Below, piece by piece: positions 5,882 through 48,010 of a DNA stretch of 64,000 bases. Both the position numbers and the translations under genes were made by a program. The stretch is from Oceanotoga teriensis. Its GTDB lineage: Bacteria > Thermotogota > Thermotogae > Petrotogales > Petrotogaceae. How positions within the stretch are numbered: the first letter of the stretch is position 1; each line of letters opens with the position of its first letter. Below the pieces are notes generated by a model. It saw nothing but the letters and a program-made list of their open reading frames with translations, made no database searches and was not told the origin of the DNA. The stretch lies in the NCBI RefSeq assembly GCF_003148465.1, contig NZ_QGGI01000001.1, forward strand, positions 95,170 through 159,169, given 5' to 3'.

Positions 5882-5962
5882 TCCTCTTTATTTTCTTGAA
5901 ATTCCAATATATAAATAAAAATAGTTTACATAAATATGATAACATAATTCGGAGGGATTTTA

Positions 5963-19511: not shown

Positions 19512-19615
19512 TACTTATCCAGAGAAGAGTAGGGAATCGGCCCGTTGATACTTCAGCAACCTGCAATTGCGTTGGTGCTAAATCCGACATTTCTATTTGA
19601 AATGAAAGATAAGAT
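19512..19615 (+). promoter_or_regulatory. SAM-I (S-box) riboswitch aptamer
   Basis: acTTATCCAGAGaagAGtAGGGAatCGGCCCgtTGAtaCttcaGCAACCtgcaattgcgttGGTGCTAAAtCCgac...AGATAAGat matches the S-box consensus (CTTATCaAGAG..GGAGGGAcTGGCCC.TGA..CC..GCAACC...GGTGCTAAttCC...AGATAAG). Confidence 0.8.
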
Positions 19616-32977: not shown

Positions 32978-33042
32978 ACTAAATATATCCATGTTAAAAT
33001 ACCCTCAGAGGGTATATAAAACTAATTGGAGGTATCAATATA

Positions 33043-33707
33043 TGGCACAATTATTAGATGAAAAAACAAGAGAACAAGTTGCAGAAATTTTAAAAGATAT
33101 GACAAATAAAGTTAAGTTTATTCTTTTCAAAAATGACAGCGAATATTCAGAAGTTACAGAAAATTTGATAACAGAATTAACGGAAGTAAATGAAAAAATT
33201 CAAATTGAATCTCATTCTAAAGATGAAGACTTTGAAAAATATGGATTAGATAAAAATTTATTTCCATCAATGGTTTTACTCGATTCAGAAGATAAAGATT
33301 TAGGAATTAAATTTTATGGAATTCCTTCAGGTCATGAATTTTCAACCTTATTGCAAAATATAATAATGGTTTCAAATTCTAAAGTAAATTTTTCTGAAGA
33401 AACACAAAATAAAATTAAAACTATTGATAAAAAAATAAGAATAAGAGCATTTGTAACTCCAACATGTCCTTATTGTCCAAATGCAGTACTTGCAGCTCAT
33501 CAATCTGCTATTTTAAACTCAAACATATCTGGAGAAATGGTTGAGGCAAACGAATTCCCAGAATTGTCTTCAAAACATGGAGTAAGTTCAGTTCCACATA
33601 CAGTAATAGAAATATTTGAAAATGATGAATGGAAAACAAAAAACGAATTTATTGGAGCTTATCCAGAACAAAACTTCTTAGATGAAATTTTAAAATCAGT
33701 AGAATAA
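33043..33707 (+). CDS. Glutaredoxin-like protein disulfide oxidoreductase (two thioredoxin-fold units, CPYC active site)
   Basis: GGAGGT then ATG 33043 (MAQLLDEK); the track ORF starts at 32991. The second unit carries VTPTCPYCPNAV, typical of the PDO/Grx-like partners of TrxB in Thermotogae and Thermococcales. Confidence 0.6.
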
Positions 33708-33720
33708 TAAAAAATAATTA

Positions 33721-33746
33721 GGTGACCCATTTGGGTCACCTTTTTA
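33721..33746 (+). terminator. Rho-independent terminator between the PDO gene and trxB
   Basis: GGTGACCCA-tt-TGGGTCACC followed by TTTTT. Confidence 0.55.
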
Positions 33747-33770
33747 GAATCATTTAAAGGAGGATAAAAA

Positions 33771-34727
33771 ATGTTTTTTGATCTTGGAAATGCCGGTAAA
33801 AAAGATCTTATTAAAGATTATTATGATATGATAATAATAGGTGGAGGCCCTGGAGGTATATCTGCTGCAATATATGCTGTACAGGGAGGTATTAAACCTT
33901 TAATTATAGAAAAAACTCTTGAAGGTGGCCAGATGAATCTGACAGAACTTGTAGAAAATTATCCTGGTTTTACTTCAATAAAAGGTTCTGAAATTTCGAA
34001 AAAAATGGGCGAACATGCAAAACATTTTGGTGTTGAGTTTCACTTTGCACAAGTTATGGATATAAAATTGAATGAAAATGAAAAAATTATAATAACAGAT
34101 GATGGAAAAACAATAAAGACTAAAGTACTTGTAATTGCTTCTGGAGCAACTCCAAAACATTTAAATATTAAAGGTGAAGAAGAATTTAATTCTAAGGGAA
34201 TTTCATACTGTGCGACTTGTGATGGACATTTTTTTAAAAATCAAAAAGTTGCTGTTATTGGTGGAGGAAATACTGCAATTGAAGAAGCTTTATATTTATC
34301 AAAAATAGCTAAGGAAGTTCATGTAATTCATAGAAGAGATAAACTAAGAGCCGATAAAATGTTACAAGATAGAGCTTTTAATTCTTCTAATATAAAATTT
34401 AGATGGAATAAAGTGGTAAATGAATTTAAAGGTGATTTTAAACTCAAAGAATTAGAATTAAAAGATACTATAAATTCAGAATTGACTACAGAAAAATTCG
34501 ATGGAGCTTTTATATTTATAGGTCACAAACCAGAAACTTCATATTTAAAAGATATGCTAGAACTCGATGATGCTGGATATATAAAAACTGATAAAAACTT
34601 AGAAACATCTGTAAAAGGAATTTACGCTGTTGGAGATATAAGAGATACACCTTTAAAACAAATAGTTACTGCAGTTGCCGATGGAGCTATTGTTTCATCT
34701 CATGCTGTGAGGAAATACTTTAATTAA
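33771..34727 (+). CDS. trxB: Thioredoxin-disulfide reductase
   Basis: 318 aa; FAD site IIGGGPGGISAAIYA, the redox-active CATCDG, and an NAD(P) site VIGGGNTAIEEA. Confidence 0.85.
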   Translation: MFFDLGNAGKKDLIKDYYDMIIIGGGPGGISAAIYAVQGGIKPLIIEKTLEGGQMNLTELVENYPGFTSIKGSEISKKMGEHAKHFGVEFHFAQVMDIKLNENEKIIITDDGKTIKTKVLVIASGATPKHLNIKGEEEFNSKGISYCATCDGHFFKNQKVAVIGGGNTAIEEALYLSKIAKEVHVIHRRDKLRADKMLQDRAFNSSNIKFRWNKVVNEFKGDFKLKELELKDTINSELTTEKFDGAFIFIGHKPETSYLKDMLELDDAGYIKTDKNLETSVKGIYAVGDIRDTPLKQIVTAVADGAIVSSHAVRKYFN

Positions 34728-34736
34728 AACGATTAA

Positions 34737-34771
34737 ACGGGAATATATACATAAAATTCCCGTTTTTTTGT
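34737..34771 (+). terminator. Rho-independent terminator after trxB
   Basis: AACGGGAAT-atatacataaa-ATTCCCGTT followed by a T7 run. Confidence 0.6.
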
Positions 34772-34887
34772 TAATTCTTTGAAAATCAGTCTATTGTAAT
34801 AAAATGTTTCTATTTATGTAAAAACATTCTCCAAAATAAATAATACAATAGATATAATATAAAAATTTTCAGGAGGTGTTTTTACTG

Positions 34888-36345
34888 ATGAGAGAAGCTT
34901 TAACTTTTGATGATGTTTTACTCGTACCAAAATATTCAGAAGTTATACCTACACAAACTAATACTAAGAGTAGATTAGTAAAAAATATTTTTTTAAATGT
35001 TCCTTTTATATCTGCAGCTATGGATACCGTAACAGAAACAAGAATGGCAAAAGCAATGGCAAGAGAAGGCGGAGCTGGAGTAATTCATAAAAATATGAGT
35101 ATTGAAGAACAAGCTTACAAAGTTTCAAAAGTAAAAAGAGCTGAAAATGGAGTTATCACTGATCCAATAACAATTACTCCAGAAACTAAAATTTATGAAG
35201 CTGAAAAAATAATGGAAGAATATAAAATTGGTGGTCTTCCTGTAATCGATAAAAACGAAAAATTATTAGGAATAATAACAAATCGTGATATTAGATTTGA
35301 AAGAAATTCAGATAAACTCGCCAAAGAACTTATGACACCTTATAAAGATTTAGTTGTTGCTGGACCACATACAGAAATAGAAAAAGCTAAAGAAATTTTA
35401 CATGAAAATAAAATTGAAAAATTACCTATAGTTGATAAACACAATAGAATAATAGGATTAATAACAATAAAAGATGTTATGTCAGTAGTTGAAAAACCAA
35501 ATGCCTCAAGAGATACCAAAGGAAGACTCATAGTGGGTGCTGCTATTGGTACTGGTGATGGTATAGAAAGAGCAAAAAAATTGATAGAAGCTAATGTTGA
35601 TTTTTTAGTTTTAGATTCTGCTCATGGTCACTCAAAAAATATAATAAATATATTAAAAACTATAAAATCAGATTATCCTGAAATGCCTATAATTGCAGGT
35701 AATATTGCTACAGCACAGGCTGCAGAAGATCTAATAAAAGCTGGTGCTGATGGTGTAAAAGTTGGAATTGGACCAGGTTCTATATGTACAACAAGAATTG
35801 TTGCTGGTATAGGAGTACCACAATTAACTGCTATAATGGATGTATATTCAGTTACAAAAAAATATGATATTCCTTTAATCGCAGATGGCGGATTAAGATT
35901 TTCAGGAGATATTGTAAAAGCATTTGCGGCTGGTGCCTCAACTGTAATGATGGGTAGCATTCTTGCTGGAACAGATGAAGCACCTGGTGAAACTATAATA
36001 TATTCCGGAAGAAAATTTAAGACTTACAGAGGAATGGGTTCTATTGGTGCAATGGAAAAAGGTTCTAAAGATAGATATTTTCAAGATTCTGTAACTGATT
36101 CTGAAAAACTTGTTCCTGAAGGTGTTGAAGGTATGGTAGCTTATAAAGGTGGAGTTTCTGATGTAATTCATCAATTACTCGGTGGATTAAAAGCTGGTAT
36201 GGGATATTGTGGTGCTAAAAACTTTGAAATGCTTAGAAATAATTCTGAATTTATAAAAATTTCAAATGCTGCAATGTCTGAAAGTCATGCACATGACATA
36301 AAAATAACTAAAGAATCTCCAAATTATTATTTTTCTTCAAAATAA
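34888..36345 (+). CDS. guaB: Inosine-5'-monophosphate dehydrogenase (with CBS pair)
   Basis: GGAGGTG then ATG 34888 ([17 protein letters not shown]); the catalytic loop [11 protein letters not shown] and [12 protein letters not shown]. Confidence 0.9.
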
Positions 36346-36349
36346 ATTA

Positions 36350-36387
36350 AAAGTAGCTGAAAAATTTCAGCTACTTTTAATTTTTAT
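36350..36387 (+). terminator. Rho-independent terminator after guaB
   Basis: AAAGTAGCTGAAA-aa-TTTCAGCTACTTT followed by a T-rich tract. Confidence 0.6.
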
Positions 36388-36450
36388 ATGTTAAATTTAA
36401 TCATAAACCTCGATTTTATGTTACAAGAAATTTTGTTTTTTTAATTTTTG

Positions 36451-36479
36451 TTGAGTTTTGATTAAATTTAGTGTATAAT
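36451..36479 (+). promoter_or_regulatory. Near-consensus sigma-70 promoter
   Basis: TTGAGT, 17 nt, TATAAT (36474-36479), about 25 nt upstream of the RBS GAGAGGGGG and ATG 36503. Confidence 0.45.
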
Positions 36480-36502
36480 TATTTCAGAGAGGGGGCGATG
36501 CA

Positions 36503-36850
36503 ATGGATAACTTTACTAAAGAACTCAATGAATTAATAGAATTAAAGTATATAATTGACGCTTATGCTATGTATAAAAAAGGCAAAGGTAAAGTTCCAGT
36601 AGAAGAAATATATATAAATAATAAAATTAAAGAATCTTTAGATGATTTACTCATAAAAGATAAAGGTTTTATTGTAAAAAATACCGATGAAATTGAAGTA
36701 GATGCAATTCCTCCCGAAATAGACGCTGCAGATATATTAACAATAATAGAATCTTTAGAAGAGATGGGTTTTTTTACAGAATATGTATTTTCGAAAGATA
36801 TGTCTGAAATGTTTATAAAAGTTAAAAAAGTAAAAGATATAAATTATTAA
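36503..36850 (+). CDS. Hypothetical acidic protein
   Basis: 115 aa; has its own strong promoter and RBS; no family recognised. Confidence 0.4.
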   Translation: MDNFTKELNELIELKYIIDAYAMYKKGKGKVPVEEIYINNKIKESLDDLLIKDKGFIVKNTDEIEVDAIPPEIDAADILTIIESLEEMGFFTEYVFSKDMSEMFIKVKKVKDINY

Positions 36851-36861
36851 AGGGTGATAAA

Positions 36862-37131
36862 ATGATTAGCACTAAACTTATAGTATATGGCAGAGTCCAA
36901 GGCGTAGGTTTTAGATTTTATATAAAAACTCAAGCTAATAAATATAATATAAACGGATATATTAAAAATTTAATAGATGGATCTGTTGAAATAGTAGCTC
37001 AAGGTCAAGAGAGTGATTTAAATAGTTTTAAAGCTTCTATAATTAGAGGCAATGGTTTTTCAAGAGTTGAAAATATTGAAGAAGAACGGTTTAGTGAAAA
37101 AAATTTTTCACTATTTTCTGTAAAATATTGA
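36862..37131 (+). CDS. acyP: Acylphosphatase
   Basis: 89 aa; the VYGRVQGVGFRFY signature motif. Confidence 0.8.
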   Translation: MISTKLIVYGRVQGVGFRFYIKTQANKYNINGYIKNLIDGSVEIVAQGQESDLNSFKASIIRGNGFSRVENIEEERFSEKNFSLFSVKY

Positions 37132-37146
37132 AGAGAGGTAAATAAA

Positions 37147-37623
37147 ATGTCTTATTTAAAATATAGTTTAGGAGATATTGTAAAAGAAATAAAACTTCCA
37201 GATTCAAATGGTGTATTAACAGATGCATTGAATTCAAAAAATATAAAAATTATTTATTTTTATCCAAAAGATAATACTAAAGGTTGTACTACAGAAGCTT
37301 TAGATTTTACATCTAAAGTAAAGGATTTTAAAAAGTATAATACTGTAATATATGGTATAAGTCCAGATGAAGGAAAAAAACATTTTAATTTTATAGCAAA
37401 AAATAATTTAAAAATAACTTTATTAAGCGATACTGAAAAAAAAATACTCAATGAATTTGGAGTATGGCAAAAAAAGAAATTATATGGCAAAGAATATATG
37501 GGAGTTATAAGAACTACCATCCTAATAGACGAAAATAACAAAATAATAAAGATTTGGGAAAAAGTAAATGTTAAAAATCATGTGGAAGAAGTATTAAACT
37601 TTATAAAAGAAATGAAGCAATAG
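37147..37623 (+). CDS. bcp: Thiol peroxidase of the Bcp/PrxQ (AhpC/TSA) family
   Basis: 158 aa; the peroxidatic-Cys motif YFYPKDNTKGCTTEA. Confidence 0.8.
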   Translation: MSYLKYSLGDIVKEIKLPDSNGVLTDALNSKNIKIIYFYPKDNTKGCTTEALDFTSKVKDFKKYNTVIYGISPDEGKKHFNFIAKNNLKITLLSDTEKKILNEFGVWQKKKLYGKEYMGVIRTTILIDENNKIIKIWEKVNVKNHVEEVLNFIKEMKQ

Positions 37624-37646
37624 AAAAAATCTATTGCTTCATTTTT
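37614..37646. terminator. Terminator between convergent bcp and ferritin genes
   Basis: GAAGCAATAG-aaaaaat-CTATTGCTTC followed by TTTTT. Confidence 0.55.
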
Positions 37647-37648
37647 AT

Positions 37649-38161
37649 TTATTCTTCTGATGTTGCAGTTAAAGTTATTACTCCAAGTGATTCATCCATT
37701 CTCAATAATGCCATGACATTCTCATCAATTAATTCTAATCTATCAACTATTTCAGTTGCAGTTGCTTCTTCTTCAACTTGTTCAGCAACAAACCATTGTA
37801 AAAAATTATTAGTTGCATGATCGCTTAATTCAATTGCAAGATCTACCAATTTATTTATAGAATCTGTTATAAATTGTTCATGTGCCAAAGCATCTTTAAA
37901 AGCAGCTTGAACATTATCCCAGTCATGTTTTGGTTCTTCTATCGCTTTTAATAAAACTCTACCGCCTCTTTCATTTATAAAATCATAAATTTTTCTCGCA
38001 TGTATTTTTTCTTCAGATGCTTGTACATCCAACCAATTAGCAAAACCCTTTAAACTCTTGCTTTCAAAATAAGCTGCCATTGATTGATATAAGTAAGCAG
38101 AAAACAATTCTTTGTTAATCTGTTCATTCAATGCTTTTTCCATTTTTTCATTAATAGCCAT
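37649..38161 (-). CDS. ftn: Non-heme ferritin
   Basis: 170 aa; the ferritin-like four-helix bundle with ELFSAYLYQSMAAYFE and ASEEKIHARKIYDFI (ferroxidase-site residues). Confidence 0.85.
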   Translation of the reverse strand: MAINEKMEKALNEQINKELFSAYLYQSMAAYFESKSLKGFANWLDVQASEEKIHARKIYDFINERGGRVLLKAIEEPKHDWDNVQAAFKDALAHEQFITDSINKLVDLAIELSDHATNNFLQWFVAEQVEEEATATEIVDRLELIDENVMALLRMDESLGVITLTATSEE

Positions 38162-38216: not shown

Positions 38217-38666
38217 TTAAAGTTCCAGGACTCTCTTTAATTTATTTGGAGATAATCTAAAATCAGATCCTTTTCCCTGTAAAAAATGATGTTTTTCTAA
38301 AAGATGTACAGATAGATCTGTATAAATTATAGTCTCATTTAAATTATTATTAGTTAAAATAACATTAATTTTTCTAAAAATGCCATCCTCAAATGGACAA
38401 GCTAAAAAACCTCTTGCTTCATCAACTTTTATTTCCCAATTTAAATATTTAATAGGTTCTCCAAAACCTTTTCTTCCTTTTTCTAATAATTCTTTCATCA
38501 TCTCTGAAACTTTTTCAAATTCAAGATTTAATTTAAGCATTTTTTCTTCATCTTCTTCTATAATATCAACTAAAGATCTATCATCATCTCCTAAAAAACC
38601 ATTAGCAGTTATTTCACCTGGTTGCATGTTATGTTGTGCCTTCTTTAATTCAGGAGTCATTTTCAT
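38217..38666 (-). CDS. Hypothetical protein encoded 12 nt downstream of nqrF (possible operon member)
   Basis: 149 aa, acidic, no recognised family; same strand and tight spacing with nqrF. Confidence 0.4.
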   Translation of the reverse strand: MKMTPELKKAQHNMQPGEITANGFLGDDDRSLVDIIEEDEEKMLKLNLEFEKVSEMMKELLEKGRKGFGEPIKYLNWEIKVDEARGFLACPFEDGIFRKINVILTNNNLNETIIYTDLSVHLLEKHHFLQGKGSDFRLSPNKLKRVLEL

Positions 38667-38678
38667 TTTTATACCTCC

Positions 38679-39797
38679 TCAAGCAAATTTATCATAATAA
38701 ATTTTTTCTTCTGATATGTCATTAGATGTCATGACTTTAACACATGCATCTATCATACCAGGACTTCCACAAAGATAACCTTCTCTTTCATGTTCTGGAT
38801 TTAATTTAGTTTTTAAATATTTATCTAATACATCAGTTATAAGTCCTGTTTCTCCTTCCCAATTATCTTCGTCCATTGGATCTGAAAGTGCAGGAATAAA
38901 ATGAAGATTAGGCATCTTTTTAGACAATTCTTTAAATTCTTCAATATAATATAGATCTTTTAAACTTCTCGCCCCAAAAAAATACCAAATTTCTCTATCT
39001 AAAATTTCTTTTTCATACATATCATAAATAATTGATTTTATTGGAGCCATTCCCGAACCACCTGCAACACATACCATATCTGCTTTTGTTTCTCTCATAA
39101 AAAAATCTCCAAAAGGCCCTACAACTTCTACATCTTGATTTTCTTTCAAAAAATCATGTACATATGTAGTTGCTATTCCACCTGGAACAAGTCTAATCAA
39201 AAATTCAACATGTGAATTATCTTTTGGAGCTGAAGAAATAGAATATGCCCTTTGTGTGCTTTCTTTTATTTTTCCATATGGAGGAACAACAATTTGTGCA
39301 TATTGTCCTGCTTTAAATTCTATATTATCTGGATTTTTTAATTTAATATAGACTTCTTTAATATCATGAGTTACATTATTTATTTTTTCAACTTTAGCTT
39401 TATATTGTTTTACATAAAATAATTCTTCAGGTATTTCTATTGAAATATTAGATTTAACTTTAACTTGACAAGAAAGTCTAATTTTAGATTTTTTTTCCTC
39501 ATCTGTTAATAATGGAGCTTCTGTTGGTAAAATAGGACCAACATCCGATAATATTTTAACTTTACATGCACCACAACTTCCTTTTCCACCACAAGCTGAA
39601 GGTATAAATATACCTTGTTCTGCAAGTGTAAACAAAAGAGGAGATCCACCATCAACCTTAAGTTCTTTTGTTCCATTATTTATATTTATGTTTACTTCTC
39701 CATAATTATTGACTATAGAATCAACTATAGTAATAATCAAAGCAAGAACAGAAGTAAGAATTGCCACAATAATAGATGCTGATAATATTCCAGTCAT
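38679..39797 (-). CDS. nqrF: NqrF-like subunit: N-terminal TM + 2Fe-2S ferredoxin domain + FAD/NADH-binding reductase
   Basis: 372 aa; an N-terminal helix, the 2Fe-2S motif CGGKGSCGACKV...C, an FAD motif RAYSISS, and an NAD motif GGSGMAP. The domain order is identical to Na+-NQR subunit F. Confidence 0.8.
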   Translation of the reverse strand: MTGILSASIIVAILTSVLALIITIVDSIVNNYGEVNININNGTKELKVDGGSPLLFTLAEQGIFIPSACGGKGSCGACKVKILSDVGPILPTEAPLLTDEEKKSKIRLSCQVKVKSNISIEIPEELFYVKQYKAKVEKINNVTHDIKEVYIKLKNPDNIEFKAGQYAQIVVPPYGKIKESTQRAYSISSAPKDNSHVEFLIRLVPGGIATTYVHDFLKENQDVEVVGPFGDFFMRETKADMVCVAGGSGMAPIKSIIYDMYEKEILDREIWYFFGARSLKDLYYIEEFKELSKKMPNLHFIPALSDPMDEDNWEGETGLITDVLDKYLKTKLNPEHEREGYLCGSPGMIDACVKVMTSNDISEEKIYYDKFA

Positions 39798-39806
39798 ATA
39801 ATCACC

Positions 39807-40397
39807 TCACTGTACTGCAAGCATTCCGGAAAAACCCAGAAATGCCATAGCCATAAATCCTATAGTTATTAAAGTTATTCCAGGACCTTTTAATCCATAT
39901 GGAACAGGAGCTTTGTCTACTTTTTTTCTTATTGCTGCCAATGCCATAATAGCAAGCCACCATCCAAGACCGGATCCCAATCCAAAAATAATTGATTGTA
40001 TAAAAGAATAATCTCTTAACTGCATAAATAATGCAACACCTAAAATTGCACAATTAACCGTTATCAATGGCAAGAAGATTCCTAAAGCCATATATAAATT
40101 TTCGGATACTCTTTCTATTATCATTTCAAGAATTTGTACTACAGCTGCAATAACTATTATAAAAACTATATATCTTAAATATTCTAAACCAAAAGGTTCA
40201 AGTATATAATTATAAACTAACCAATTAACTGCAGTTGTTATTGTTAAAACAAAAGTCACTGCCATACCAAGACCATTTGAAGATTTATAATCTTTAGAAA
40301 CTGAAATAAATGAACACATTCCTAAAAAGTTTGAAAGTAAAATATTTGATGTAAATATAGATGCAAAAAATAATACAAAAGGACTTATTTCAGGCAT
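39807..40397 (-). CDS. rnfA: RnfA/NqrE family membrane subunit
   Basis: 196 aa; a six-TM protein with the conserved NCAILG motif. Confidence 0.85.
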
Positions 40398-40399
40398 AG

Positions 40400-41002
40400 T
40401 TATTCAGCCTCCTTCTTAGACATAATCCCTTTAACAATCCATATAAAAATAGCCAACATAAAAAATGCACTTGGTGGCATAACCATAATCGTCCATTTTA
40501 TAAAATTTTCTGGCATAATTTGAAACCCAAATATAGTACCAAAGCCTAGTAATTCTCTAAAAAAGGCTATAGTAAGTAAAACATACATATATCCAGTACC
40601 TGAAGTTATACCATCCCAAAAAGAAATAAAAGGTTTATTTGATTGTGCAAAAGCTTCAGCTCTTCCCATTATTATACAATTAGTAATTATTAATCCTACA
40701 TAAGGTCCAAGCGCTCTACTTATATCTGGTAAAAAGGCTTTTAAAATTATATCAACAATTATTACATAAAAAGAAATTATTAATGTTTGAACTATCATCC
40801 TCACTTTTCGAGGTATTAATGACTTAATTGAAGAAATTGTAAAATTTGTAAATCCCATAACTAAAATAACTCCTATTGACATTATCAAAGTATTTTCAAG
40901 TCTATTTGTAACTGCTAAAGTAGAACAAATTCCAAGGATTTGAACAAATATGGCATTATTATTCCATAGATTATCCTTTAAGATTGTTTTATATTGAGCC
41001 AT
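40400..41002 (-). CDS. rnfE: RnfE/NqrD family membrane subunit
   Basis: 200 aa; paralogous to the preceding gene, carrying the family [12 protein letters not shown] motif. Confidence 0.85.
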
Positions 41003-41613
41003 TATTCATTCACCCCCAATATAGTTTTAATTTTATATATAGTATCATTAGTAATTTTTTGAACAGATTCAGAGGTCCTTGTAGCCCCAGTAATAGAATC
41101 TATTTCACTATTTTCCTTATCTAAATCTCCTTCTCCACCACCAACTATAACTTTTATATTATTATTAATTATTTTTTCATTTTTAAATTGATCTTTAAAC
41201 CATTCTTCTTCAATTCTTCCCCCAAGACCAGGTGTTTCATTATGTGAAATAAAATCTATTCCCAATATTTGACTAACATCAGAATTAACAGCTAATATTC
41301 CAGTTATTGTTCCCCAAAGTCCATTTCCAGTGAATTTAAATCCATAAAATTTCTCATCGTTTTTTTCATATTCATACAAAATTTCATCATTATATTTTTC
41401 TATTTTTATAGTATCTTCATATTTTTCAAAGGCTTCATCATCATTTTCATAAATTATTCCAAAAGCATTAAGAACAGCTTTTCTTTCAAATAATTGTTGA
41501 TTTTTTACTATTTGTTCTTTAGTTAATTCATTTGCAAGTGCTAGAACAAAAACAAAAATAAAAGAAACAATAAATGTAAATATTATTGTATATGATTTAC
41601 TTTGTTTTTTCAT
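41002..41613 (-). CDS. rnfG: RnfG/NqrC family FMN-binding subunit
   Basis: 203 aa; an N-terminal TM anchor and a covalent-FMN site SITGATRTSESV. Confidence 0.75.
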   Translation of the reverse strand: MKKQSKSYTIIFTFIVSFIFVFVLALANELTKEQIVKNQQLFERKAVLNAFGIIYENDDEAFEKYEDTIKIEKYNDEILYEYEKNDEKFYGFKFTGNGLWGTITGILAVNSDVSQILGIDFISHNETPGLGGRIEEEWFKDQFKNEKIINNNIKVIVGGGEGDLDKENSEIDSITGATRTSESVQKITNDTIYKIKTILGVNE

Positions 41614-42497
41614 GATTTCACCTTCTTATTAAATTTAATCTGATCTAATAAAGAAGCAAATGTATTTCCCATTAAAACTGCAAAACTTGTTCCTTCTGAA
41701 AATAATGAAAAAGTTCTAATTAAAACAGCTGAAACACCTATTATAATTCCATAAATCCAATGAGACGAATTCTTTTTTGGCCCTGATACAGGATCAGTTG
41801 CCATAAAAACAGTTACAAACAATAAACTTCCAGACATAACAGCTTCAATTGGAGGCATTGCTCCAGATACATTAAAAAAATAAAGTATGGAACTTAATAT
41901 TAAAGCACTCGAAAAAGTTGATATTATTATTCTCCAACTCGCTGTTTTTGTAACCATTAAATAAATTGCGGCAATTACAATAAGCCATATGGCACTTTCA
42001 CCCATTGATCCAGGTCTTATGCCAAAAAACAAATCGCGAATAGAAAGATTATCTCCCATTCTGAGCATCTCTAAAGGTGTAGCGGTTGAAAGAATATCTG
42101 TTCCAAAATTTCCCGGTTTCATCCAACCAGTTGTCATAACATTCGCAAATGTTATATAAACAAAAAGACGTCCTGTAATTGCAGGATTGAAAATATTTCT
42201 TCCAAATCCTCCATAAACTTCTTTTCCAAATAAAACAGCAAAAATAGAAGCTATTAAGGCTATCCACCAAGGTGTTAAAGGTGGCATTGATAATACTAAT
42301 AACATAGCAGTAACTAAGACAGCTTCGCTAACTTTTTTCTTTCTATTTTTTTCAAAGATGTATTCTACTCCTATACTCGAACCAAAAACTATGGCAGATA
42401 ACATCAATAGTCTCCATCCATATAAATAAAAAGAAAAAATATAGATGGGAATTAAAGAGTATAGCACTCTTCTCATCATTATCTGTTTCTGAAACAT
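41610..42497 (-). CDS. rnfD: RnfD/NqrB family membrane subunit
   Basis: A likely ATG at 42497 (MFQKQ...) follows GGGGGTG. About 295 aa polytopic, with the family motifs GRNIFNPA and VFMATDPVSGP (FMN-attachment region). The first gene of the operon; no rnfC, rnfB or nqrA lies upstream. Confidence 0.8.
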   Translation of the reverse strand: MFQKQIMMRRVLYSLIPIYIFSFYLYGWRLLMLSAIVFGSSIGVEYIFEKNRKKKVSEAVLVTAMLLVLSMPPLTPWWIALIASIFAVLFGKEVYGGFGRNIFNPAITGRLFVYITFANVMTTGWMKPGNFGTDILSTATPLEMLRMGDNLSIRDLFFGIRPGSMGESAIWLIVIAAIYLMVTKTASWRIIISTFSSALILSSILYFFNVSGAMPPIEAVMSGSLLFVTVFMATDPVSGPKKNSSHWIYGIIIGVSAVLIRTFSLFSEGTSFAVLMGNTFASLLDQIKFNKKVKS

Positions 42498-42682
42498 GAG
42501 ATGCACCCCCGAATGTTAATATTTTTTTATTAAATCCCATTATATTTTAACACAAAAAGCATAATTTATCAACATTACATTAAATAATGACCCATAAAAA
42601 CGAATAATTTATCAATTTTATTATTATATTAAAAAATAAATTCTGTTATAATTGTAATACATAATATTAAGAGGTGATAGCT

Positions 42683-43900
42683 TTGCAAAATTTAGTGGAT
42701 AGATTTTTAAAATATATCAAAATATATACAACATCTGATGAGAATTCAGATACAATTCCTTCAACAAAAAGACAATTAGTTCTTGCCGAAGAATTAAAAA
42801 AAGAATTGATTGAAATAGGTTTAGATGAAGTATCGCTTGATGAAAATGGTTATTTGATGGCGACTATACCTTCAAATATAGAGAAAAATTGTCCTGTAAT
42901 AGGATTTATAGCCCATATGGATACATCTCCAGATATGTCTGGAGAAAATGTGAAATCTAAAATTATAAATTATAATGGTGAAAAAATTATTTTAAATGCT
43001 GAAAAAAATATTTATTTAGATCCAAAAGATTTTCCATCATTAAATGATTATAATGGAAAAACAATCATAACAACAGATGGAACAACTTTACTAGGTGCCG
43101 ATGATAAAGCAGGAATTGCTGAAATAATTACAGCTTCGGAAATATTATTAAAATCTGATATAAAACATGGAAAAATAAGAATATGTTTTACCCCAGATGA
43201 AGAAATAGGTAGAGGAGCAGATTTTTTTGATGTGAAAAAATTTGGAGCAGATTTTGCTTATACTATTGATGGAGGACCTCTTGGAGAACTTGAATCTGAA
43301 AATTTTAATGCAGCAAGTGCTAAATTTTATATTCAAGGTAAAAATGTACATCCTGGAACAGCTAAAGATCAGATGATTAATTCTATACTAATAGCAAATG
43401 AATTGATATCTTTATTTCCAAAAAATGAAAGACCTGAAAATACCGAAAAATATGAAGGTTTTTTTCATATAAATGATATTAATGGTTCTGTAGAGAAAAC
43501 TACTTTAAATATGATAATAAGAGATCATGATAAAGAATTATTTGAACAAAAAAAAGATTTTGTTCAAAAAGTTGTTGAAAAAATAAATAAAAAATATTCT
43601 AATGCTATCAAATTAGAATTAAAAGATAGTTATTACAATATGAAAGAAATAATTGAAAAAAATCCTCATATAATGGATTTGGCAAAAAAAGCTTTTTTAA
43701 ATTGTGATGTAACTCCTAATATAAAACCTATAAGAGGCGGAACTGATGGTGCAAGACTATCATTTATAGGTCTCCCATGTCCTAATATATTCACTGGAGG
43801 ACATAATTTCCATGGAAAATATGAATACGTTGTAATCGAATCTATGGAAAAAGCTGTTCAAATAATAGTAGAAATTGCTAAATTAAATACTGAATTTTAA
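42683..43900 (+). CDS. pepT: Peptidase T (tripeptide aminopeptidase, M20B)
   Basis: About 405 aa; LVDRFLKYIKIYTTSDENS, the metal ligands HMDT and DDKAG, EEIGRGA. The start is TTG 42683 or GTG 42674. Confidence 0.8.
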   Translation: MQNLVDRFLKYIKIYTTSDENSDTIPSTKRQLVLAEELKKELIEIGLDEVSLDENGYLMATIPSNIEKNCPVIGFIAHMDTSPDMSGENVKSKIINYNGEKIILNAEKNIYLDPKDFPSLNDYNGKTIITTDGTTLLGADDKAGIAEIITASEILLKSDIKHGKIRICFTPDEEIGRGADFFDVKKFGADFAYTIDGGPLGELESENFNAASAKFYIQGKNVHPGTAKDQMINSILIANELISLFPKNERPENTEKYEGFFHINDINGSVEKTTLNMIIRDHDKELFEQKKDFVQKVVEKINKKYSNAIKLELKDSYYNMKEIIEKNPHIMDLAKKAFLNCDVTPNIKPIRGGTDGARLSFIGLPCPNIFTGGHNFHGKYEYVVIESMEKAVQIIVEIAKLNTEF

Positions 43901-43906
43901 GTAAAA

Positions 43907-43943
43907 AGAATAGTTGGAATCAACCAACTATTCTTTTTATTTT
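43907..43943. terminator. Bidirectional terminator between convergent pepT and iorB
   Basis: AAGAATAGTTGG-aatcaa-CCAACTATTCTT followed by TTTATTTT. Confidence 0.55.
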
Positions 43944-44502
43944 ATTCAAATATTCTAAGATTTTTTTCTAATGCATATTCTGGTAAAAGATCTTTTAAAG
44001 CTTTTAAATAATCTTCTCTTTTTATATATTTTATAATTTCATTATTTTTTATTTCATTTAAAACAACAACATTTTGCATTCTTGCATCTTCAAGATTTTC
44101 ATCAAATACTCTGTAAACTTTTATATTTCTTTCTTTACAAATTTTATTTATATCTTCATTAGTAATTTCTTTATCTTTTCCTAAACGAACAGAAAGTGTT
44201 TGCCAAGATGTATCATAATATATTAAACTTCCACCATCTTTTAAAAACTCATTTACTCCCCTTAAGGCTTCGGTTCTTTCAAGAGAAATAACTATGTCTG
44301 CATATCCTTTTTTTATTAGAGCCGAATGTATTCCTTCTCCTATTCTAACATGTGATTGTACAGTTCCTCCTCTTTGTGCAAGTCCATGTGTATCAACTCC
44401 CATAACTGGAAGTCCAGCATAATCTGCTGCTCTAATGATAACTTCACTTAATAATCCTATTCCTTGTCCTCCTACACCTATTATATATATATTTTGTCTC
44501 AT
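43942..44502 (-). CDS. iorB: Indolepyruvate:ferredoxin oxidoreductase beta subunit
   Basis: 186 aa; IIGVGGQGIGL...HGLAQRGGTVQSHVRIG, the pyruvate/ketoisovalerate oxidoreductase gamma-type domain. Confidence 0.8.
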   Translation of the reverse strand: MRQNIYIIGVGGQGIGLLSEVIIRAADYAGLPVMGVDTHGLAQRGGTVQSHVRIGEGIHSALIKKGYADIVISLERTEALRGVNEFLKDGGSLIYYDTSWQTLSVRLGKDKEITNEDINKICKERNIKVYRVFDENLEDARMQNVVVLNEIKNNEIIKYIKREDYLKALKDLLPEYALEKNLRIFE

Positions 44503-44514
44503 ATTTATCCCTCC

Positions 44515-46383
44515 TTAATTATTTTTGGGTTTTATTGCTGAAGTTGGACAAGTTTGAATACAAGAACCATCCCCAATACAAAGATCTTCATGAACCCATA
44601 TATTTCCTTTATCATCTTTTTGAAAAGAAGGACAAGCAAAATCTTCTATACAATAATTAGAATTATTACATATATTTTGATCAATAAATACATGTCTATT
44701 TTTATAAGTTCCTTTTTTTCTCTGTTCTCTTGTAAATTTCAACATACAAGGATGTTTAGCTATAACTACTTTTAATCCTTTTATTTTTGAGGTCTTTTTT
44801 ATTATTTCAAAAAGTTTGTTTTGAGAATATGCATCAACTTCAAATATATTTTCAACACCTATTCCTTCTAAAACTTTTTTCAATGGTATTTCTTTAGTCT
44901 TTTCATTAAAATTACTTCCAACCGCTGGATGATCTTGATGACCAGTCATAGCTGTTGTACCATTTTCCATTATTATTAATGTAAGATTATGTTGATTAAA
45001 AACAGCATTTATTATTCCTGGTATTGCTGCATGGAAAAAAGTTGAATCTCCTAAAAAAGATACTATATTTCTTTTTTCATTAAACAATGAAAGTCCTGAT
45101 CCTGTAGATATTGAATGTCCCATCGATAATAACACTTCACCCATTTCATATGGTGGAAGATATCCAAGTGTATGGCATCCTATATCAGCAACTGTTATAT
45201 CTTCAGAATTTAAAGCTTTTTTTATAGCATAAAACGCTGATCTGTGTCCACATCCAGGACACATTTGAGCTGGTCTTTTTGGTACATTTATTTTTTTATT
45301 TATATTTATACTTTGAAAAATTTCTGGCCATGTATTATTCATTATTTCTTGAACTTTATCTGGAGTATATTCACCTATAAATTCATTGATATCAAATTTA
45401 CCCATTATTTTAGTATATATTTTGTTATCATAAGCTATTCTTTTTATATTTGTTTCAAGAATATCATCGAGTTCCTCTAAAATTTTTATTTCATCATGAC
45501 TATTTAAAAACGATTTTATTATTCCTTCTTCTAATGGGTAAACAACTCCAAGCTTTAATATATCAGGTTTATCTTCAACTTCTTCAAGTACATCAAGTAA
45601 AGATAAATATGGAACTCCCATTGTTATAATTCCTTTTTTGGAATTATTATTAAACAATTTATTTATATTTTTTTCAGAAGTTAGTTTTTTAAATTCATTC
45701 AATTTTAATAAAGCATTTTTTTTCATATTAAATACTTCAGAAGTTATAGGTATATAAGGTCCATTTTTTTTATCAAATTTTGATTGTTTAGAAATATTTT
45801 TTATTTCATATTTTTTAAAATGAACTTTTTGTTTAGCATGACAAACATGCGTAGTAAGTCTCAAAATGACTGGCATTTTCATTTTTTTAGAAATTTTTGT
45901 TGCTTCAATATACATTTCATATGCTTCTTGAGGAGTTGAAGGTTCTAATACTGGTATATATGTCATTTCAGCATAATGTCTATTATCTTGTTCATTTTGA
46001 GAAGAATTAGCTCCCGGATCATCACCTAAAATAATTACCATTCCACCTATCAACTCTAATAATGCCAATTGAACAAATGAATCAGCAGCTACGTTGAGAC
46101 CTACAGATTTAAAAAATACTGTTGATAAATGCCCATTAACACTAGCGCCAAATGAAACTTCAGTTGCTACTTTTTCATTTGTAGAAAATTCAAAATAAAA
46201 AGGCCTTTTTTCAGATTTAATACTTGAAATTGCAGTCGCAATTTCAGGTGTTGGCGAACCTGGATAAGAAGTTACTATTTCTGTCCCAGCTTCTATCATT
46301 GCTCTAACAATGGCTGTATTTCCTATAACAATCTCGGAAAAATTTTCATTTCTTAAGAGCATATCCCCCATTTTTTTCATTTT
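44515..46383 (-). CDS. iorA: Indolepyruvate:ferredoxin oxidoreductase alpha subunit (TPP-binding, C-terminal 4Fe-4S clusters)
   Basis: AAGGGGGA then ATG at 46383 (MKKMGDMLL); the track ORF starts at 46437. A TPP fold (GCHTLG, GDSTFFH) and a C-terminal CxxCxxC...CP ferredoxin motif. Confidence 0.85.
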   Translation of the reverse strand, partial: KMKKMGDMLLRNENFSEIVIGNTAIVRAMIEAGTEIVTSYPGSPTPEIATAISSIKSEKRPFYFEFSTNEKVATEVSFGASVNGHLSTVFFKSVGLNVAADSFVQLALLELIGGMVIILGDDPGANSSQNEQDNRHYAEMTYIPVLEPSTPQEAYEMYIEATKISKKMKMPVILRLTTHVCHAKQKVHFKKYEIKNISKQSKFDKKNGPYIPITSEVFNMKKNALLKLNEFKKLTSEKNINKLFNNNSKKGIITMGVPYLSLLDVLEEVEDKPDILKLGVVYPLEEGIIKSFLNSHDEIKILEELDDILETNIKRIAYDNKIYTKIMGKFDINEFIGEYTPDKVQEIMNNTWPEIFQSININKKINVPKRPAQMCPGCGHRSAFYAIKKALNSEDITVADIGCHTLGYLPPYEMGEVLLSMGHSISTGSGLSLFNEKRNIVSFLGDSTFFHAAIPGIINAVFNQHNLTLIIMENGTTAMTGHQDHPAVGSNFNEKTKEIPLKKVLEGIGVENIFEVDAYSQNKLFEIIKKTSKIKGLKVVIAKHPCMLKFTREQRKKGTYKNRHVFIDQNICNNSNYCIEDFACPSFQKDDKGNIWVHEDLCIGDGSCIQTCPTSAIKPKNN

Positions 46384-46396
46384 TATTCCCCCTTTG

Positions 46397-47494
46397 TCAA
46401 TATTTATATTCTTCAAGAAGATATTCATAATCATCAAACCAAAATGCTCTTGGATTTCTTTTATATATCATAAATTTATTTTTATTTTCTTCTTTATTAG
46501 CTCTATGGTATTTAAACATTATTTTATCTTTTGTAATTCCACTTATTTCTATTTTTCCTGTTTCATGAGACATGACAAATTTTGGCCTTTTTGCAAGACC
46601 TGATATTTCTTCAAGAGCTTTTAAAAAATTTATATATCCTTTTTCAACTTCTAATGCAAAAGGTTTATTACCCATTACAGGTCTATTTTGAAAAACATAG
46701 TATGGTGGGACTCCAATATAAGATAGTTTTTGGAATAATTTTTTTAATGTTTTTACATCATCATTTATTCCTTTAAGTATAGGTGTTTGATTTACAACTT
46801 GTGCACCATTCTTTAATAAAATATCTATGGATTTAATAGTATAATGTGTAATTTCATTGGGATGGTTTATATGAAGCATAAAATATAATCTTTTTTCTGG
46901 AGTAGAATAATTTTGAATTAAACTATGTAAAGTTTCATCTTCAATAATTCTAAAAGGATAAAATGCAGGTAATTTTGTTCCTATTCTTATTATTTTAATA
47001 TGATCTATATCTCTCAACTTTTTTATTATATCATTCAATTTTTTTGTAGATAATAAAAGCGGATCTCCGCCTGTCAATAAAACATTAGTAATTTCTTTAT
47101 TTTCTTCTATATATCTTAAATCTGTAGTTATATCTCTCGTTACTTCATCACCTATATTTATGAATAATCTTTTTCTAAAACAAAATCTACAAAATCCACC
47201 ACATAAATCGTTTATAAGCAATAAAACAGTATCTTTATATTTATGCTGCAATCCTTTGGATATAGTATAAGAATATTCTTTTGAAGCATCTTCAATACCC
47301 CATTCATCTAATTCTGAATACTGTGGAATAATAATCTTTCTTATTGGATCATTTTCATCTTTCCAGTCTATAAGTGATAAATAATATTCATTAGATCTAA
47401 ATTTGTATTTTTTTGATACCTCTTTTAATTTTTCTAATTTCTCTTTAGATATATACTTCATATTATCAAGTTTATGTATATAATTTACTTTCAA
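46397..47494 (-). CDS. KamA-family radical SAM protein (lysine 2,3-aminomutase-like)
   Basis: 365 aa; the cluster motif CGGFCRFCFRKR (Cx3Cx2C) and the family motif LLTGGDPLLL. Confidence 0.7.
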   Translation of the reverse strand: MKVNYIHKLDNMKYISKEKLEKLKEVSKKYKFRSNEYYLSLIDWKDENDPIRKIIIPQYSELDEWGIEDASKEYSYTISKGLQHKYKDTVLLLINDLCGGFCRFCFRKRLFINIGDEVTRDITTDLRYIEENKEITNVLLTGGDPLLLSTKKLNDIIKKLRDIDHIKIIRIGTKLPAFYPFRIIEDETLHSLIQNYSTPEKRLYFMLHINHPNEITHYTIKSIDILLKNGAQVVNQTPILKGINDDVKTLKKLFQKLSYIGVPPYYVFQNRPVMGNKPFALEVEKGYINFLKALEEISGLAKRPKFVMSHETGKIEISGITKDKIMFKYHRANKEENKNKFMIYKRNPRAFWFDDYEYLLEEYKY

Positions 47495-47527: not shown

Positions 47528-48010
47528 TCAATCTAAATATTTAGATATTAGATCGATTACTTCTTCACTTAATTTTTTTAATAATATAGGATATACTGTT
47601 GAAAAAATAGAATATAATATTGAAGTTATATACATGAAGAATTCTGAATTAATTTTATTAGGAAGTTTTAGTCCAAAAAAATTAATCATCAATAGAAAAC
47701 TAATAAAAGTTGTTAATATTATGATTATATTTTTCAGGATTTTTTTATTTACAGTTTTATAAATAAAAACTGGTAAAAATATTAATAATAAAATACCTAT
47801 ACTTTCAATGACAAAACCAGAAATAAATATTAAAAACAAAAAAACAAATGTATATATTAATGAATATCTTAAGCTTAAAAAGAATATCGGCATAGGCATG
47901 ATAAAACTTATAATATTAGGAGCTATTTTTAAATATTTTAAAGATATAAATAATATATAAAAAAGCCCCGCTAATATAGATGTTTTTATAATTTCATTTT
48001 TTATTTTCAT
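47528..48010 (-). CDS. Hypothetical polytopic membrane protein
   Basis: 160 aa, 4-5 TM helices; lies between the Cys-rich small protein and the KamA-like gene. Confidence 0.35.
   Translation of the reverse strand: MKIKNEIIKTSILAGLFYILFISLKYLKIAPNIISFIMPMPIFFLSLRYSLIYTFVFLFLIFISGFVIESIGILLLIFLPVFIYKTVNKKILKNIIIILTTFISFLLMINFFGLKLPNKINSEFFMYITSILYSIFSTVYPILLKKLSEEVIDLISKYLD

Follow-up and report, generated by a model that had tools for sequence, protein, structure and literature searches.

A stretch of 64,000 nucleotides (nt) of the Oceanotoga teriensis genome (RefSeq contig NZ_QGGI01000001.1, positions 95,170 to 159,169; G+C ∼27%), here called the window, contains a minus-strand operon, B-C-D-E-F-P149, that appears to be a sister lineage of the NADH:quinone oxidoreductase that translocates Na+ (Na+-NQR), not an Rnf core with NqrF added. 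The last gene encodes a soluble protein of 149 amino acids (aa), P149, from an unnamed family. Comparison of related loci indicates that it is the obligatory sixth gene of the operon, and we propose that its product is the cytoplasmic output or docking subunit of the complex. The reading that we favour, at a little under even odds (a probability of about 0.45), is that the complex is an ion-pumping NADH:rubredoxin-type oxidoreductase that feeds defence against O2 and reactive oxygen species (ROS).

Descent of the membrane core

An earlier note, made from the sequence letters, had described five packed genes on the minus strand, and all of these open reading frames (ORFs) were recovered as it described them, coordinates included. 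The B subunit, of the NqrB/RnfD family, is encoded at 41610-42497 (295 aa from the ATG at 42497, which stands behind a GGGGGTG ribosome-binding site; the RnfD-like ORF 41610-42506 gives 298 aa from a GTG) and holds a predicted threonine for covalent attachment of flavin mononucleotide (FMN), T140, in the motif STAT. The C subunit (NqrC/RnfG family, 41002-41613, 203 aa) comprises an N-terminal membrane anchor and an FMN-binding domain, and is followed by the NqrD-type D subunit (40400-41002, 200 aa; Cys26 and Cys109), the NqrE/RnfA-type E subunit (39807-40397, 196 aa; Cys28 and Cys116) and the NqrF-type F subunit (38679-39797, 372 aa), in which a transmembrane helix precedes a 2Fe-2S ferredoxin domain, the flavin adenine dinucleotide (FAD) motif RAYS and the NADH motif GGSGMAP. 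P149 (38217-38666) starts 12 nt past F, and all junctions from B to P149 are either overlapping or gaps of 1-12 nt. Pfam identifies the first five products as NQR2_RnfD_RnfE (PF03116, 2.6e-81), FMN_bind (PF04205, 4.7e-17), Rnf-Nqr, Rnf-Nqr, and Fer2 with FAD_binding_6 and NAD_binding_1, the Pfam and NCBIfam assignments across the operon having E-values of 1e-17 to 1e-93, far past chance. The motifs that the note had listed for F, CGGKGSCGACKV, RAYSISS and GGSGMAP, are all present together with an N-terminal hydrophobic helix, and C carries DSITGATRTS.

Comparison with NCBIfam subfamily models, a check that the note had suggested, separated F and D from the remaining subunits. F passes the cut-off of nqrF (TIGR01941, 310.8 bits, cut-off 295), for which there is no Rnf model, the next matches being MmoC (181) and BenC (175), and D passes that of NqrD (NF006777, 244.2, cut-off 235) while scoring 173.5 on rnfE (cut-off 213.4); both are thus NQR by equivalog cut-off, whereas B, C and E stay under theirs. 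C scored better on nqrC (102.3, cut-off 144) than on rnfG (80.6, cut-off 102), and E obtained 234.5 on nqrE (cut-off 247.55) and 227.6 on rnfA (cut-off 229.3). B, which aligned solely to NqrB profile positions 122-398 and is missing the ∼100-aa N-terminal extension of NqrB, scored 202.2 on NqrB (cut-off 414) and 206.6 on rnfD (cut-off 207.05). All operon scores on the TIGR Rnf subfamily models were under the cut-off, RsxE (NF009070) alone being borderline (184.6 vs 184). The NCBIfam scores are therefore mixed, and lean to NQR.

Against proteins of solved structure, D scored 185 bits with Vibrio cholerae NqrD and 141, 123 and ∼105 with three RnfE proteins, and E scored 200 bits with V. cholerae NqrE and 183, 176 and 156 with RnfA. 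F, which is without the 26-residue insert of V. cholerae NqrF (residues 176-201), gave 230 bits with that protein and 134 with the best other reductase, so that the assignment of the 372-aa protein to the NqrF type in the earlier note holds. B was near-equal between the two families (RnfD 138, 126 and 117; NqrB 124). The note had also pointed to Rnf-like gene sizes, and B and C are indeed Rnf-like or shorter: B has 295 aa, compared with 384-412 for NqrB and 331-349 for RnfD, and C has 203 aa, compared with 236-270 for NqrC and 212-236 for RnfG.

Neighbour-joining distance trees with bootstrap were built with seven Rnf and four NQR references, taken from the nqr operons of Providencia, Prevotella and Ruegeria, the rnf operons of Bacteroides, Shewanella and Fusobacterium, and chains from the Protein Data Bank (PDB). 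In unrooted trees of B, D and E, the relatives of the operon, NQR and RNF form three well-supported groups. As D/RnfE/NqrD and E/RnfA/NqrE are paralogous, a joint tree roots each half, support being read from bipartition counts. In this tree the D-like proteins group with NqrD (bootstrap 100%) and the E-like proteins with NqrE (93%), the Rnf references (n=7) fall outside, and the alternatives receive 0-4%. The clustering of D and E with NqrD and NqrE places the membrane core on the NQR side of the Rnf-to-NQR split, and what the earlier note had called an Rnf-type core is NQR-side by descent. The C tree is long-branched and without resolution, with a single RnfG reference, and the B tree has no root, the placement of B being ambiguous. 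The family and NQR would be reciprocally monophyletic sisters, the family representing a side branch that shares the acquisition of NqrF. The description 'intermediate-looking' in that note thus fails in the sense of an intermediate and is better put as an NQR sister branch with that acquisition in common. The Rnf-like traits of B and C are real but are a matter of size.

The hybrid envisaged in the earlier note, five subunits in which an Rnf-derived core (RnfD-G-E-A) is combined with NqrF and which would, like Rnf, work with ferredoxin or another low-potential partner and mark a passage from Rnf to NQR, draws on these lengths, on the missing N-terminal extension of NqrB, on the marginally better score of B on rnfD and on the RefSeq name RnfD for B of Ilyobacter, as well as on a 2-oxoacid:ferredoxin oxidoreductase encoded just upstream. 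It conflicts with the grouping of D and E with NqrD and NqrE (100% and 93%), with the NqrD cut-off passed by D and the better fit of C to nqrC, with the absence of the ferredoxin-binding RnfB, and with the presence of a sixth conserved gene in a lineage that is a sister of NQR, and hence a side branch. Moreover, NqrF sits on the input side, which is the ferredoxin side of Rnf, and ferredoxin would then have to act at B, where a higher-potential partner is expected. We regard the hybrid as highly improbable, and the five subunits counted in the note are probably six, P149 included.

Searches with phmmer found no homologue of NqrA, RnfC, RnfB, ApbE or NqrM in any frame of the window, in agreement with the note as regards the first three, none of which lies upstream at related loci either. 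NqrA is absent from 85 genome loci and from 80 metagenome loci, no RnfC or RnfB homologue stands beside any related operon in the genome or metagenome loci, and the RnfB query gave one weak match only among the genome loci, ∼3 kb downstream of the operon (L026). The same architecture in 64 of 64 genome loci and in the metagenome loci, with unrelated genes on the flanks, shows that the absence of NqrA upstream is not an assembly artefact. Among maturation genes, apbE and nqrM adjoin the nqr operons in the annotated genomes of Providencia and Ruegeria, while an ApbE-like gene occurs 5-6 kb from the operon in three spirochaete loci only.

P149 and its fusion partners

P149 of the window and protein OF820_00935 from Oceanotoga sp. 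DSM 15011 (Thermotogota), annotated as hypothetical, are 100% identical. A gene of ∼150 aa without a Pfam domain lies ∼10-20 nt past B-C-D-E-F in a Thermotogae metagenome-assembled genome (MAG), in Spirochaeta cellobiosiphila, in a Fusobacteriaceae contig, in Pseudothermotoga and on the Ilyobacter polytropus megaplasmid; the proteins are 50-61% identical to P149 of the window, and the flanking genes are wholly different at each of these five loci. A profile scan with one genome per species found the gene in 176 genomes, and in all 64 genome loci with at least 4.4 kb upstream, across phyla, it stands directly behind B, D, E and F on the same strand. The suggestion in the earlier note that the 149-aa gene might belong to the unit is thereby borne out. 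Distant members of the family hold the same sixth-gene position in six of six cases sampled, and the window has the layout that defines the NqrBCDEF+P149 clade, B-C-D-E-F then P149 with no NqrA, RnfC or RnfB.

An exhaustive profile search returned 1353 clusters at 50% identity with E≤1e-3, and 487 with E≤1e-10. Pfam, NCBIfam and relaxed Pfam scans of 57 members gave noise only, the family being without a model; DUF7919 was rejected as its family, the match being weak, confined to one distant member and under the cut-off. A confident predicted fold of P149 had no match in the PDB. The sequence is without a hydrophobic segment, and the protein should therefore be cytoplasmic. Near-invariant polar residues of the broad family are D28, R30, D39, K101, H123, H128 and R139 (numbering of cluster P0303), G87 and P92 are invariant, and a single Cys is frequent without being universal. 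Large proteins (P0241, 885 aa; P0312, 385 aa; P0327, 2506 aa; P0374, 945 aa) also contain the P149 domain, in two to four tandem copies; of these proteins, P0241 starts with a signal-peptide-like segment and has Ser for Cys in its repeats, and one metagenome locus (L134) holds three separate paralogues (3887-4432, 5916-6236 and 13055-13393). This suggests that the P149 fold is a reusable interaction module beyond the nqr-like operon.

Fusions were sought among family members of more than 200 aa and were counted only if clean and in-frame. P149 is fused to rubredoxin in at least six clusters (P0303, P0425, P0463, P0465, P0480 and P0507), to rubrerythrin in P0284, to nitroreductase in P0285 and to NqrF itself in P0422, and each fusion occupies the sixth-gene slot of the operon. 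The P149::rubredoxin fusion closes a full B-C-D-E-F operon that is preceded by a flavodiiron protein gene at three loci (L093, L094 and L101) and stands in a different context at two others (L099 and L100). The remaining arrangements are E-F-P149::nitroreductase (L098), F-P149::rubrerythrin (L097) and E-F::P149 followed by cytochrome bd oxidase genes (L095). In this last arrangement (L095, 1132-5131, oxidase genes included) the NqrF::P149 fusion is 489 aa long, has five member sequences and lies directly before the oxidase subunit genes. Two further candidates, AhpC-TSA with P149 (P0338) and aldo-keto reductase with P149 (P0383), have incomplete domains, may be gene-call artefacts and were not used as evidence.

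A metagenome scan with a profile of the rubredoxin-fusion subfamily returned 485 relatives, of which the best 80 were examined. Among these 80, F precedes P149 at every locus reaching upstream, and B-C-D-E-F is complete in all long loci but one, NqrA and RnfC being found in none. The exception (L107, 7823-8985) is a degenerate operon in which only a fragment of B lies directly before F, with the flavodiiron, ferritin, P149 and rubredoxin genes intact. Rubredoxin is fused in 5/65 assessable loci and is a separate gene less than 200 nt downstream of P149 in 20/65, frequencies that are inflated by the rubredoxin contained in the query. A flavodiiron gene lies 5' of B on the same strand at 9 of 31 loci and a ferritin-like gene likewise at 6 of 31. 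Same-strand clusters of the order flavodiiron-(ferritin-like)-B-C-D-E-F-P149-rubredoxin occur at nine or more metagenome loci, nine being the least number, and rubrerythrin abuts P149 at L127.

With NqrF as the root, a tree of F separates the family into clades I and II. The members of clade I come from metagenomes, with source names that include WOR-3, Cloacimonetes and Planctomycetota, and show tight links to rubredoxin, flavodiiron, ferritin and rubrerythrin genes. Clade II consists of Thermotogota, Spirochaetota and Fusobacteriota, the window included, and in it P149 stands alone. The links in this clade are looser: a rubredoxin gene lies 4-8 kb downstream at 23 related Spirochaetaceae loci, and the operons of Pseudothermotoga and Ilyobacter have, respectively, a flavodiiron gene at a distance of 3 kb and a nitroreductase gene at 2 kb. 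A ferritin gene behind P149 occurs in clade II only in the window and at L001/L002, L013 and L014, and ferritin-like genes are also found within clade-I clusters.

P149 could also itself be a small redox enzyme or carrier, with a metal or flavin site of new fold built from the conserved His, Asp, Arg and Lys; it would then be the terminal acceptor or catalyst, for example a peroxide, superoxide or O2 reductase, with rubredoxin in an accessory role. The near-invariant D28, R30, D39, K101, H123, H128 and R139 and the mostly conserved Cys would suit such a site, rubredoxin is typically fused to catalytic partners, and in P149::rubrerythrin, as we read it, P149 takes the place of the classical rubredoxin-like electron-entry domain. 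However, comparison of P149 with known cofactor-binding folds and motifs gave no match, Ser stands in for the Cys in distant repeats, and tandem repeats in large proteins look more like an interaction module; an enzymatic P149 is accordingly considered quite improbable.

Predicted electron path and candidate acceptors

The cofactor and ion-path residues are retained across the family. In F, C69, C75, C78 and C110 together with RAYS and GGSGMAP are invariant in 74/74 members, and the cysteine pairs of D (69/69) and E (70/70) are likewise invariant, each pair predicted to supply half of the intramembrane 2Fe-2S site. The flavinylation motif of C, S-I-T-G-A-T178, is kept as [S/T]-G-A-[T/S] in 67/67 members, and T140, D235, D285 and E45 of B are kept in 62-66 of 66. 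Because every cofactor ligand is conserved family-wide, an NQR-type electron path is predicted. NADH would be oxidised at the FAD of the NqrF-type subunit, and single electrons would pass from the 2Fe-2S cluster of F through the intramembrane cluster of D and E to the extracytoplasmic covalent FMN of C and then to the covalent FMN of B, which would return them to the cytoplasmic face, as in NQR and RNF. Their passage would drive the export of a cation, probably Na+; E45, D235 and D285 align with E144, D346 and D397 of V. cholerae NqrB, residues that have been linked to the handling of Na+.

In NQR as in RNF, the partner of lower potential is engaged on the D/E (A/E) side and that of higher potential on the B (D) side (PMC12174285). 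With NqrF and NADH on the low-potential side here, one would expect the partner that is missing to have a potential above that of NADH and to act on B at its cytoplasmic face. The candidate that suggests itself for this output or docking role is P149, which is soluble, obligatory and fused both to NqrF and to rubredoxin, rubrerythrin or nitroreductase. The six-subunit membrane oxidoreductase, a presumed sister lineage of Na+-NQR, would then have an exit without NqrA or a quinone site, in which P149 docks cytoplasmically beside B and F and either passes electrons to soluble acceptors of high potential or holds such acceptors in position. Rubredoxin is the foremost candidate among these acceptors, and would in turn serve a flavodiiron O2/NO reductase and rubrerythrin; electrons may also go straight to rubrerythrin or nitroreductase. 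The span from NADH to rubredoxin is roughly 0.3 V, comparable to that from NADH to menaquinone, which NQR uses for Na+ pumping. In anaerobes, rubrerythrin and flavodiiron proteins usually receive their electrons from rubredoxin that an NADH:rubredoxin oxidoreductase has reduced (PMC12288474). The complex would thus be an energy-conserving, quinone-independent oxidoreductase fuelling O2/ROS defence in a fermentative anaerobe.

We infer the electron path, the ion pumping, the binding place of P149 and the identity of the acceptor in Oceanotoga from sequence, and several observations weigh against this proposal. The tight linkage to rubredoxin and flavodiiron genes is concentrated in clade I, not in clade II to which the window belongs, and no rubredoxin, flavodiiron or rubrerythrin gene was found in the 64-kb window; nor was the ApbE flavin transferase. 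No cofactor motif can be recognised in P149, whose only Cys is not kept by every member, and the protein may be purely structural. The case for ion pumping consists solely of conserved acidic residues that are common to Rnf and NQR, and the inflation of the rubredoxin frequencies by the metagenome query has been mentioned. In addition, the NqrF::P149 fusion at L095 is followed by cytochrome bd oxidase, a quinol-dependent enzyme, this being the sole quinol-linked oxygen reductase context. For Oceanotoga itself, a role in rubredoxin reduction and O2 defence would be an extrapolation from clade I and a loose context, although the neighbourhood of the operon in the window, with genes for ferritin, a Bcp peroxiredoxin, a thioredoxin-reductase-like protein and a thioredoxin-fold protein, fits an oxidative-stress theme.

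The cytochrome bd context raises the question of whether the complex is an NQR that, even without NqrA, still reduces a quinone of the membrane or some other lipophilic acceptor, with P149 as no more than a structural stand-in for NqrA that stabilises B and F. Thermotogota, and many of the spirochaetes and fusobacteria among the hosts, are not known to make respiratory quinones, which argues against such an acceptor, as does the missing N-terminal segment of NqrB, the part that contacts NqrA. The positions of B that align with 140/141 of V. cholerae NqrB, presumably the glycines of the inhibitor and quinone site, are Ser and Ile, not Gly, and fusions of P149 to soluble rubredoxin, rubrerythrin and nitroreductase would be unexpected for a purely structural subunit. 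On the other side, NqrA is without a cofactor and is regarded as a structural subunit in V. cholerae (PMC12174285), and at L095 the oxidase genes directly follow NqrF::P149; across the family, the remainder of the electron path is intact. Taken together, a quinone-reducing complex seems decidedly unlikely.

A different exit, on the outside, would lead from the extracytoplasmic FMN of C (or of B) to a periplasmic or extracellular acceptor, for example sulfur or polysulfide, Fe(III), free flavins or a flavinylated reductase; P149 would then stand apart from the electron path, helping in assembly or maturation or acting as a regulator. Reduction of S0 and of Fe(III) is found in Thermotogota. FMN domains flavinylated by ApbE serve many extracytosolic electron-transfer systems, some of them tied to iron handling (PMC8238504), and canonical nqr operons carry the maturation factors apbE and nqrM behind nqrF, the position behind P149 being taken here by ferritin. 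Nevertheless, all members have kept B, the subunit that brings electrons back to the cytoplasm, together with its FMN threonine, and no conserved exported reductase accompanies the operon in the genome or metagenome loci. P149 is also without the Cys motif and transmembrane helix of NqrM, and its fusion partners, namely rubredoxin, rubrerythrin, nitroreductase and the C-terminus of NqrF, are all cytoplasmic. An external exit is thus considered unlikely.

If electrons do leave through P149 to rubredoxin, and from there to flavodiiron protein or rubrerythrin, the result would be a quinone- and cytochrome-free chemiosmotic chain from NADH to O2/H2O2, by which so-called strict anaerobes of at least six or seven phyla would build a Na+ gradient while detoxifying oxygen; P149 would be an output subunit of new fold that replaces NqrA or RnfC and plugs in different acceptors. 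We put this extended picture forward tentatively, as possible but somewhat doubtful. NQR and RNF are the two known members of the family of redox-driven Na+ pumps, each being defined by its input and output modules, and a third widespread architecture with NADH input and protein-directed output would, if real, extend the known range of the machine. It would also answer a question open since 2014, namely what an NqrA-less NQR reduces in quinone-free organisms, and would give a function to an unnamed protein family of at least 1353 clusters at 50% identity. A true rubredoxin link would couple detoxification of O2 and peroxide in anaerobes to energy conservation, and bears on the aerotolerance of fermenters, spirochaetes and fusobacteria. 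The lineage further bears on the evolution of NQR from Rnf, as it shares the acquisition of NqrF but not that of NqrA.

Genomic surroundings and comparison with known systems

A 167-bp spacer (42507-42673) lies 5' of B, beyond which a divergent M20 peptidase gene (pepT-like, 42674-43900) begins. The spacer contains a promoter-like site on the minus strand, TTGATA, 17 nt, TG-TAAAAT (42544-42572), ∼40 nt 5' of the B start codon; it has 10/12 consensus matches and an extended -10 TG in a consensus scan, but in this AT-rich region shuffled sequence gives no fewer matches of this kind, and the site is no more than a match to the consensus. In the operon leader, neither a riboswitch nor any other Rfam element was found. 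The sole Rfam family in the window is a SAM (S-box) riboswitch on the plus strand (19512-19615; 81.2 bits vs a gathering score of 44.4), ∼240 nt 5' of a 402-aa ORF (19855-21063). Behind P149, a ferritin gene (37649-38161, minus strand, 170 aa; PF00210, 3.1e-45) starts 55 nt downstream; no terminator-like site was found between the two, and the ferritin gene is probably co-transcribed with P149. Its presence in the Oceanotoga operon is a lineage-specific addition. The ferritin gene is followed by a bidirectional terminator-like hairpin (37608-37646; 15-17 bp stem, T-run on both strands), shared with a convergent gene for a Bcp-type peroxiredoxin (37147-37623, plus strand; PF00578 AhpC-TSA, 1.6e-27), which is context outside the complex and is syntenic in the related MAG at L001.

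This peroxiredoxin gene closes a redox and oxidative-stress block (32991-37623, plus strand) that converges on the operon and is syntenic as a whole in L001; its other genes encode a 238-aa protein with a Thioredoxin_3 domain, a 318-aa flavoprotein resembling thioredoxin reductase, IMPDH, a 115-aa protein without a Pfam match and an acylphosphatase. Beyond pepT, two minus-strand genes (43942-46437) encode the 2-oxoacid:ferredoxin oxidoreductase, which is of the indolepyruvate type, with 640-aa TPP/Fer4 and 186-aa POR subunits. In the related MAG (L001, 4715-7169) the same pair lies directly 5' of the nqr-like operon on the same strand, and pepT, which separates the two in Oceanotoga, looks like an insertion into an otherwise syntenic block. 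A gene for a 365-aa radical-SAM protein with a CxxxCxxC motif (46397-47494, minus strand), read from a TTG, shares 41 nt with the start of the oxidoreductase ORF, which makes an error in one of the two listed start codons probable. Next to it, an ORF of 160 aa (47528-48010, minus strand) has no Pfam family.

In L003 (337-4988) and ∼24 other Spirochaetaceae loci, all across a single spirochaete lineage, a complete, divergent 2-oxoacid dehydrogenase complex (E1 alpha, E1 beta, E2 and E3) lies beside the operon; the block, which includes a lipoate-protein ligase and a PNPOx-like protein, is an NADH-producing neighbour and a single synteny block. These neighbours, with a GGDEF/EAL regulator and shikimate genes, mostly reflect shared synteny and were not counted as independent evidence. 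The operon of Marinitoga lauensis (L072, 6000-9985) is a degenerate copy, broken up by frameshifts into many pieces, the cause of which may be pseudogenisation or an erroneous long-read assembly. In Ilyobacter polytropus, of a genus that is a cultured model of Na+ bioenergetics, the operon is on a 0.96-Mb secondary replicon (L006; pILYOP01, NC_014633.1, 64606-68931), where RefSeq names the products RnfD, FMN-binding protein, NqrD, Rnf-Nqr domain protein, 2Fe-2S protein and hypothetical protein. These inconsistent names indicate that current annotation rules miss the operon as one system.

The five-gene architecture without NqrA is already on record. Goker et al. (2014) described NqrBCDEF lacking NqrA in Pseudothermotoga thermarum and P. 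lettingae (Theth_1137-1141 and Tlet_0865-0869; PMC4148951), and Manzoor et al. (2018) reported the same in Clostridium ultunense (CUESP_0375-0379) and P. lettingae, speculating about a lower-potential acceptor (PMC5924567). Both left the acceptor as unknown, and P. lettingae, P. thermarum and C. ultunense also carry a separate canonical rnfCDGEAB (PMC4148951, PMC5924567). A genome note on 'Ca. Izimaplasma' ZiA1 lists NqrBCDEF, Reyes-Prieto et al. (2014) did not find nqr in Thermotogae, and a 2025 review of RNF and NQR does not treat the NqrA-less variant (PMC12174285). Searches of the open-access literature gave passing genome notes only, with no functional study of an NqrA-less NQR and no rubredoxin link, a report in a subscription journal being possible. 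The Pseudothermotoga loci examined here (L005, L015 and L079) have a six-gene layout identical to that of the window, whereas the earlier accounts list five genes, with no sixth gene, no placement as a sister of NQR and no links to rubredoxin, rubrerythrin or flavodiiron protein. Within the literature searched, an obligatory sixth subunit of unmatched fold, the NQR-sister placement and the recurrent links to rubredoxin, rubrerythrin, flavodiiron protein and nitroreductase appear to be new, and these links make the acceptor question of 2014 testable.

The operon resembles Na+-NQR (V. cholerae, 7XK3 and 8A1W) in its B-C-D-E-F order, the NqrF-type F, the four Cys of D and E, the flavinylation threonines of C and B, the acidic residues aligned with NqrB E144, D346 and D397, and the position of D and E as phylogenetic sisters of NqrD and NqrE. 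It differs in the lack of NqrA, in a B that is short by the ∼100-residue N-terminus, a C that is short by 30-65 residues and an F without the 26-residue insert, in that apbE and nqrM do not adjoin it, and in the unrelated P149 that is always present; its hosts are fermentative anaerobes generally regarded as quinone-free. With Rnf (Acetobacterium woodii 9ERI, Clostridium tetanomorphum 7ZC6, Azotobacter vinelandii 8AHX and the Thermotoga maritima enzyme) it shares a homologous membrane core, the sizes of B and C and anaerobic hosts, and the FMN site of B is of the S/T-T-A-T type found in A. woodii RnfD. In contrast to Rnf, the operon encodes neither RnfC, the NAD+ module, nor RnfB, the ferredoxin module, it has NqrF on the input side, and its D and E branch with NQR.

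A protein acceptor for a complex of this family has a precedent in Escherichia coli, where RsxABCDGE, with RseC, reduces SoxR, a soluble iron-sulfur protein of the oxidative-stress response, although Rsx keeps subunits of the RnfC/RnfB type and has neither NqrF nor P149. The overall reaction proposed here would be that of the soluble chains of NADH:rubredoxin oxidoreductase, rubredoxin and flavodiiron protein or rubrerythrin in Clostridium, Desulfovibrio, Moorella and Thermotoga (PMC12288474), and rubredoxin, flavodiiron and rubrerythrin genes cluster with the reductase. Their oxidoreductase, however, is a soluble flavoprotein that has no homology to the complex and conserves no energy, in contrast to the membrane ion pump that we propose. 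Finally, the 'NQR/RNF-like' systems of Meheust et al. (2021) resemble the operon as partial gene sets without the canonical output or input subunits and with NAD(P)H as the proposed donor, but are defined by one protein in which an NqrB/RnfD membrane domain is joined to an NqrF-type NAD-binding domain, without D and E, mostly in Actinobacteria and the candidate phyla radiation (PMC8238504), whereas in Oceanotoga the genes for B and F are distinct and those for C, D and E lie between the two.

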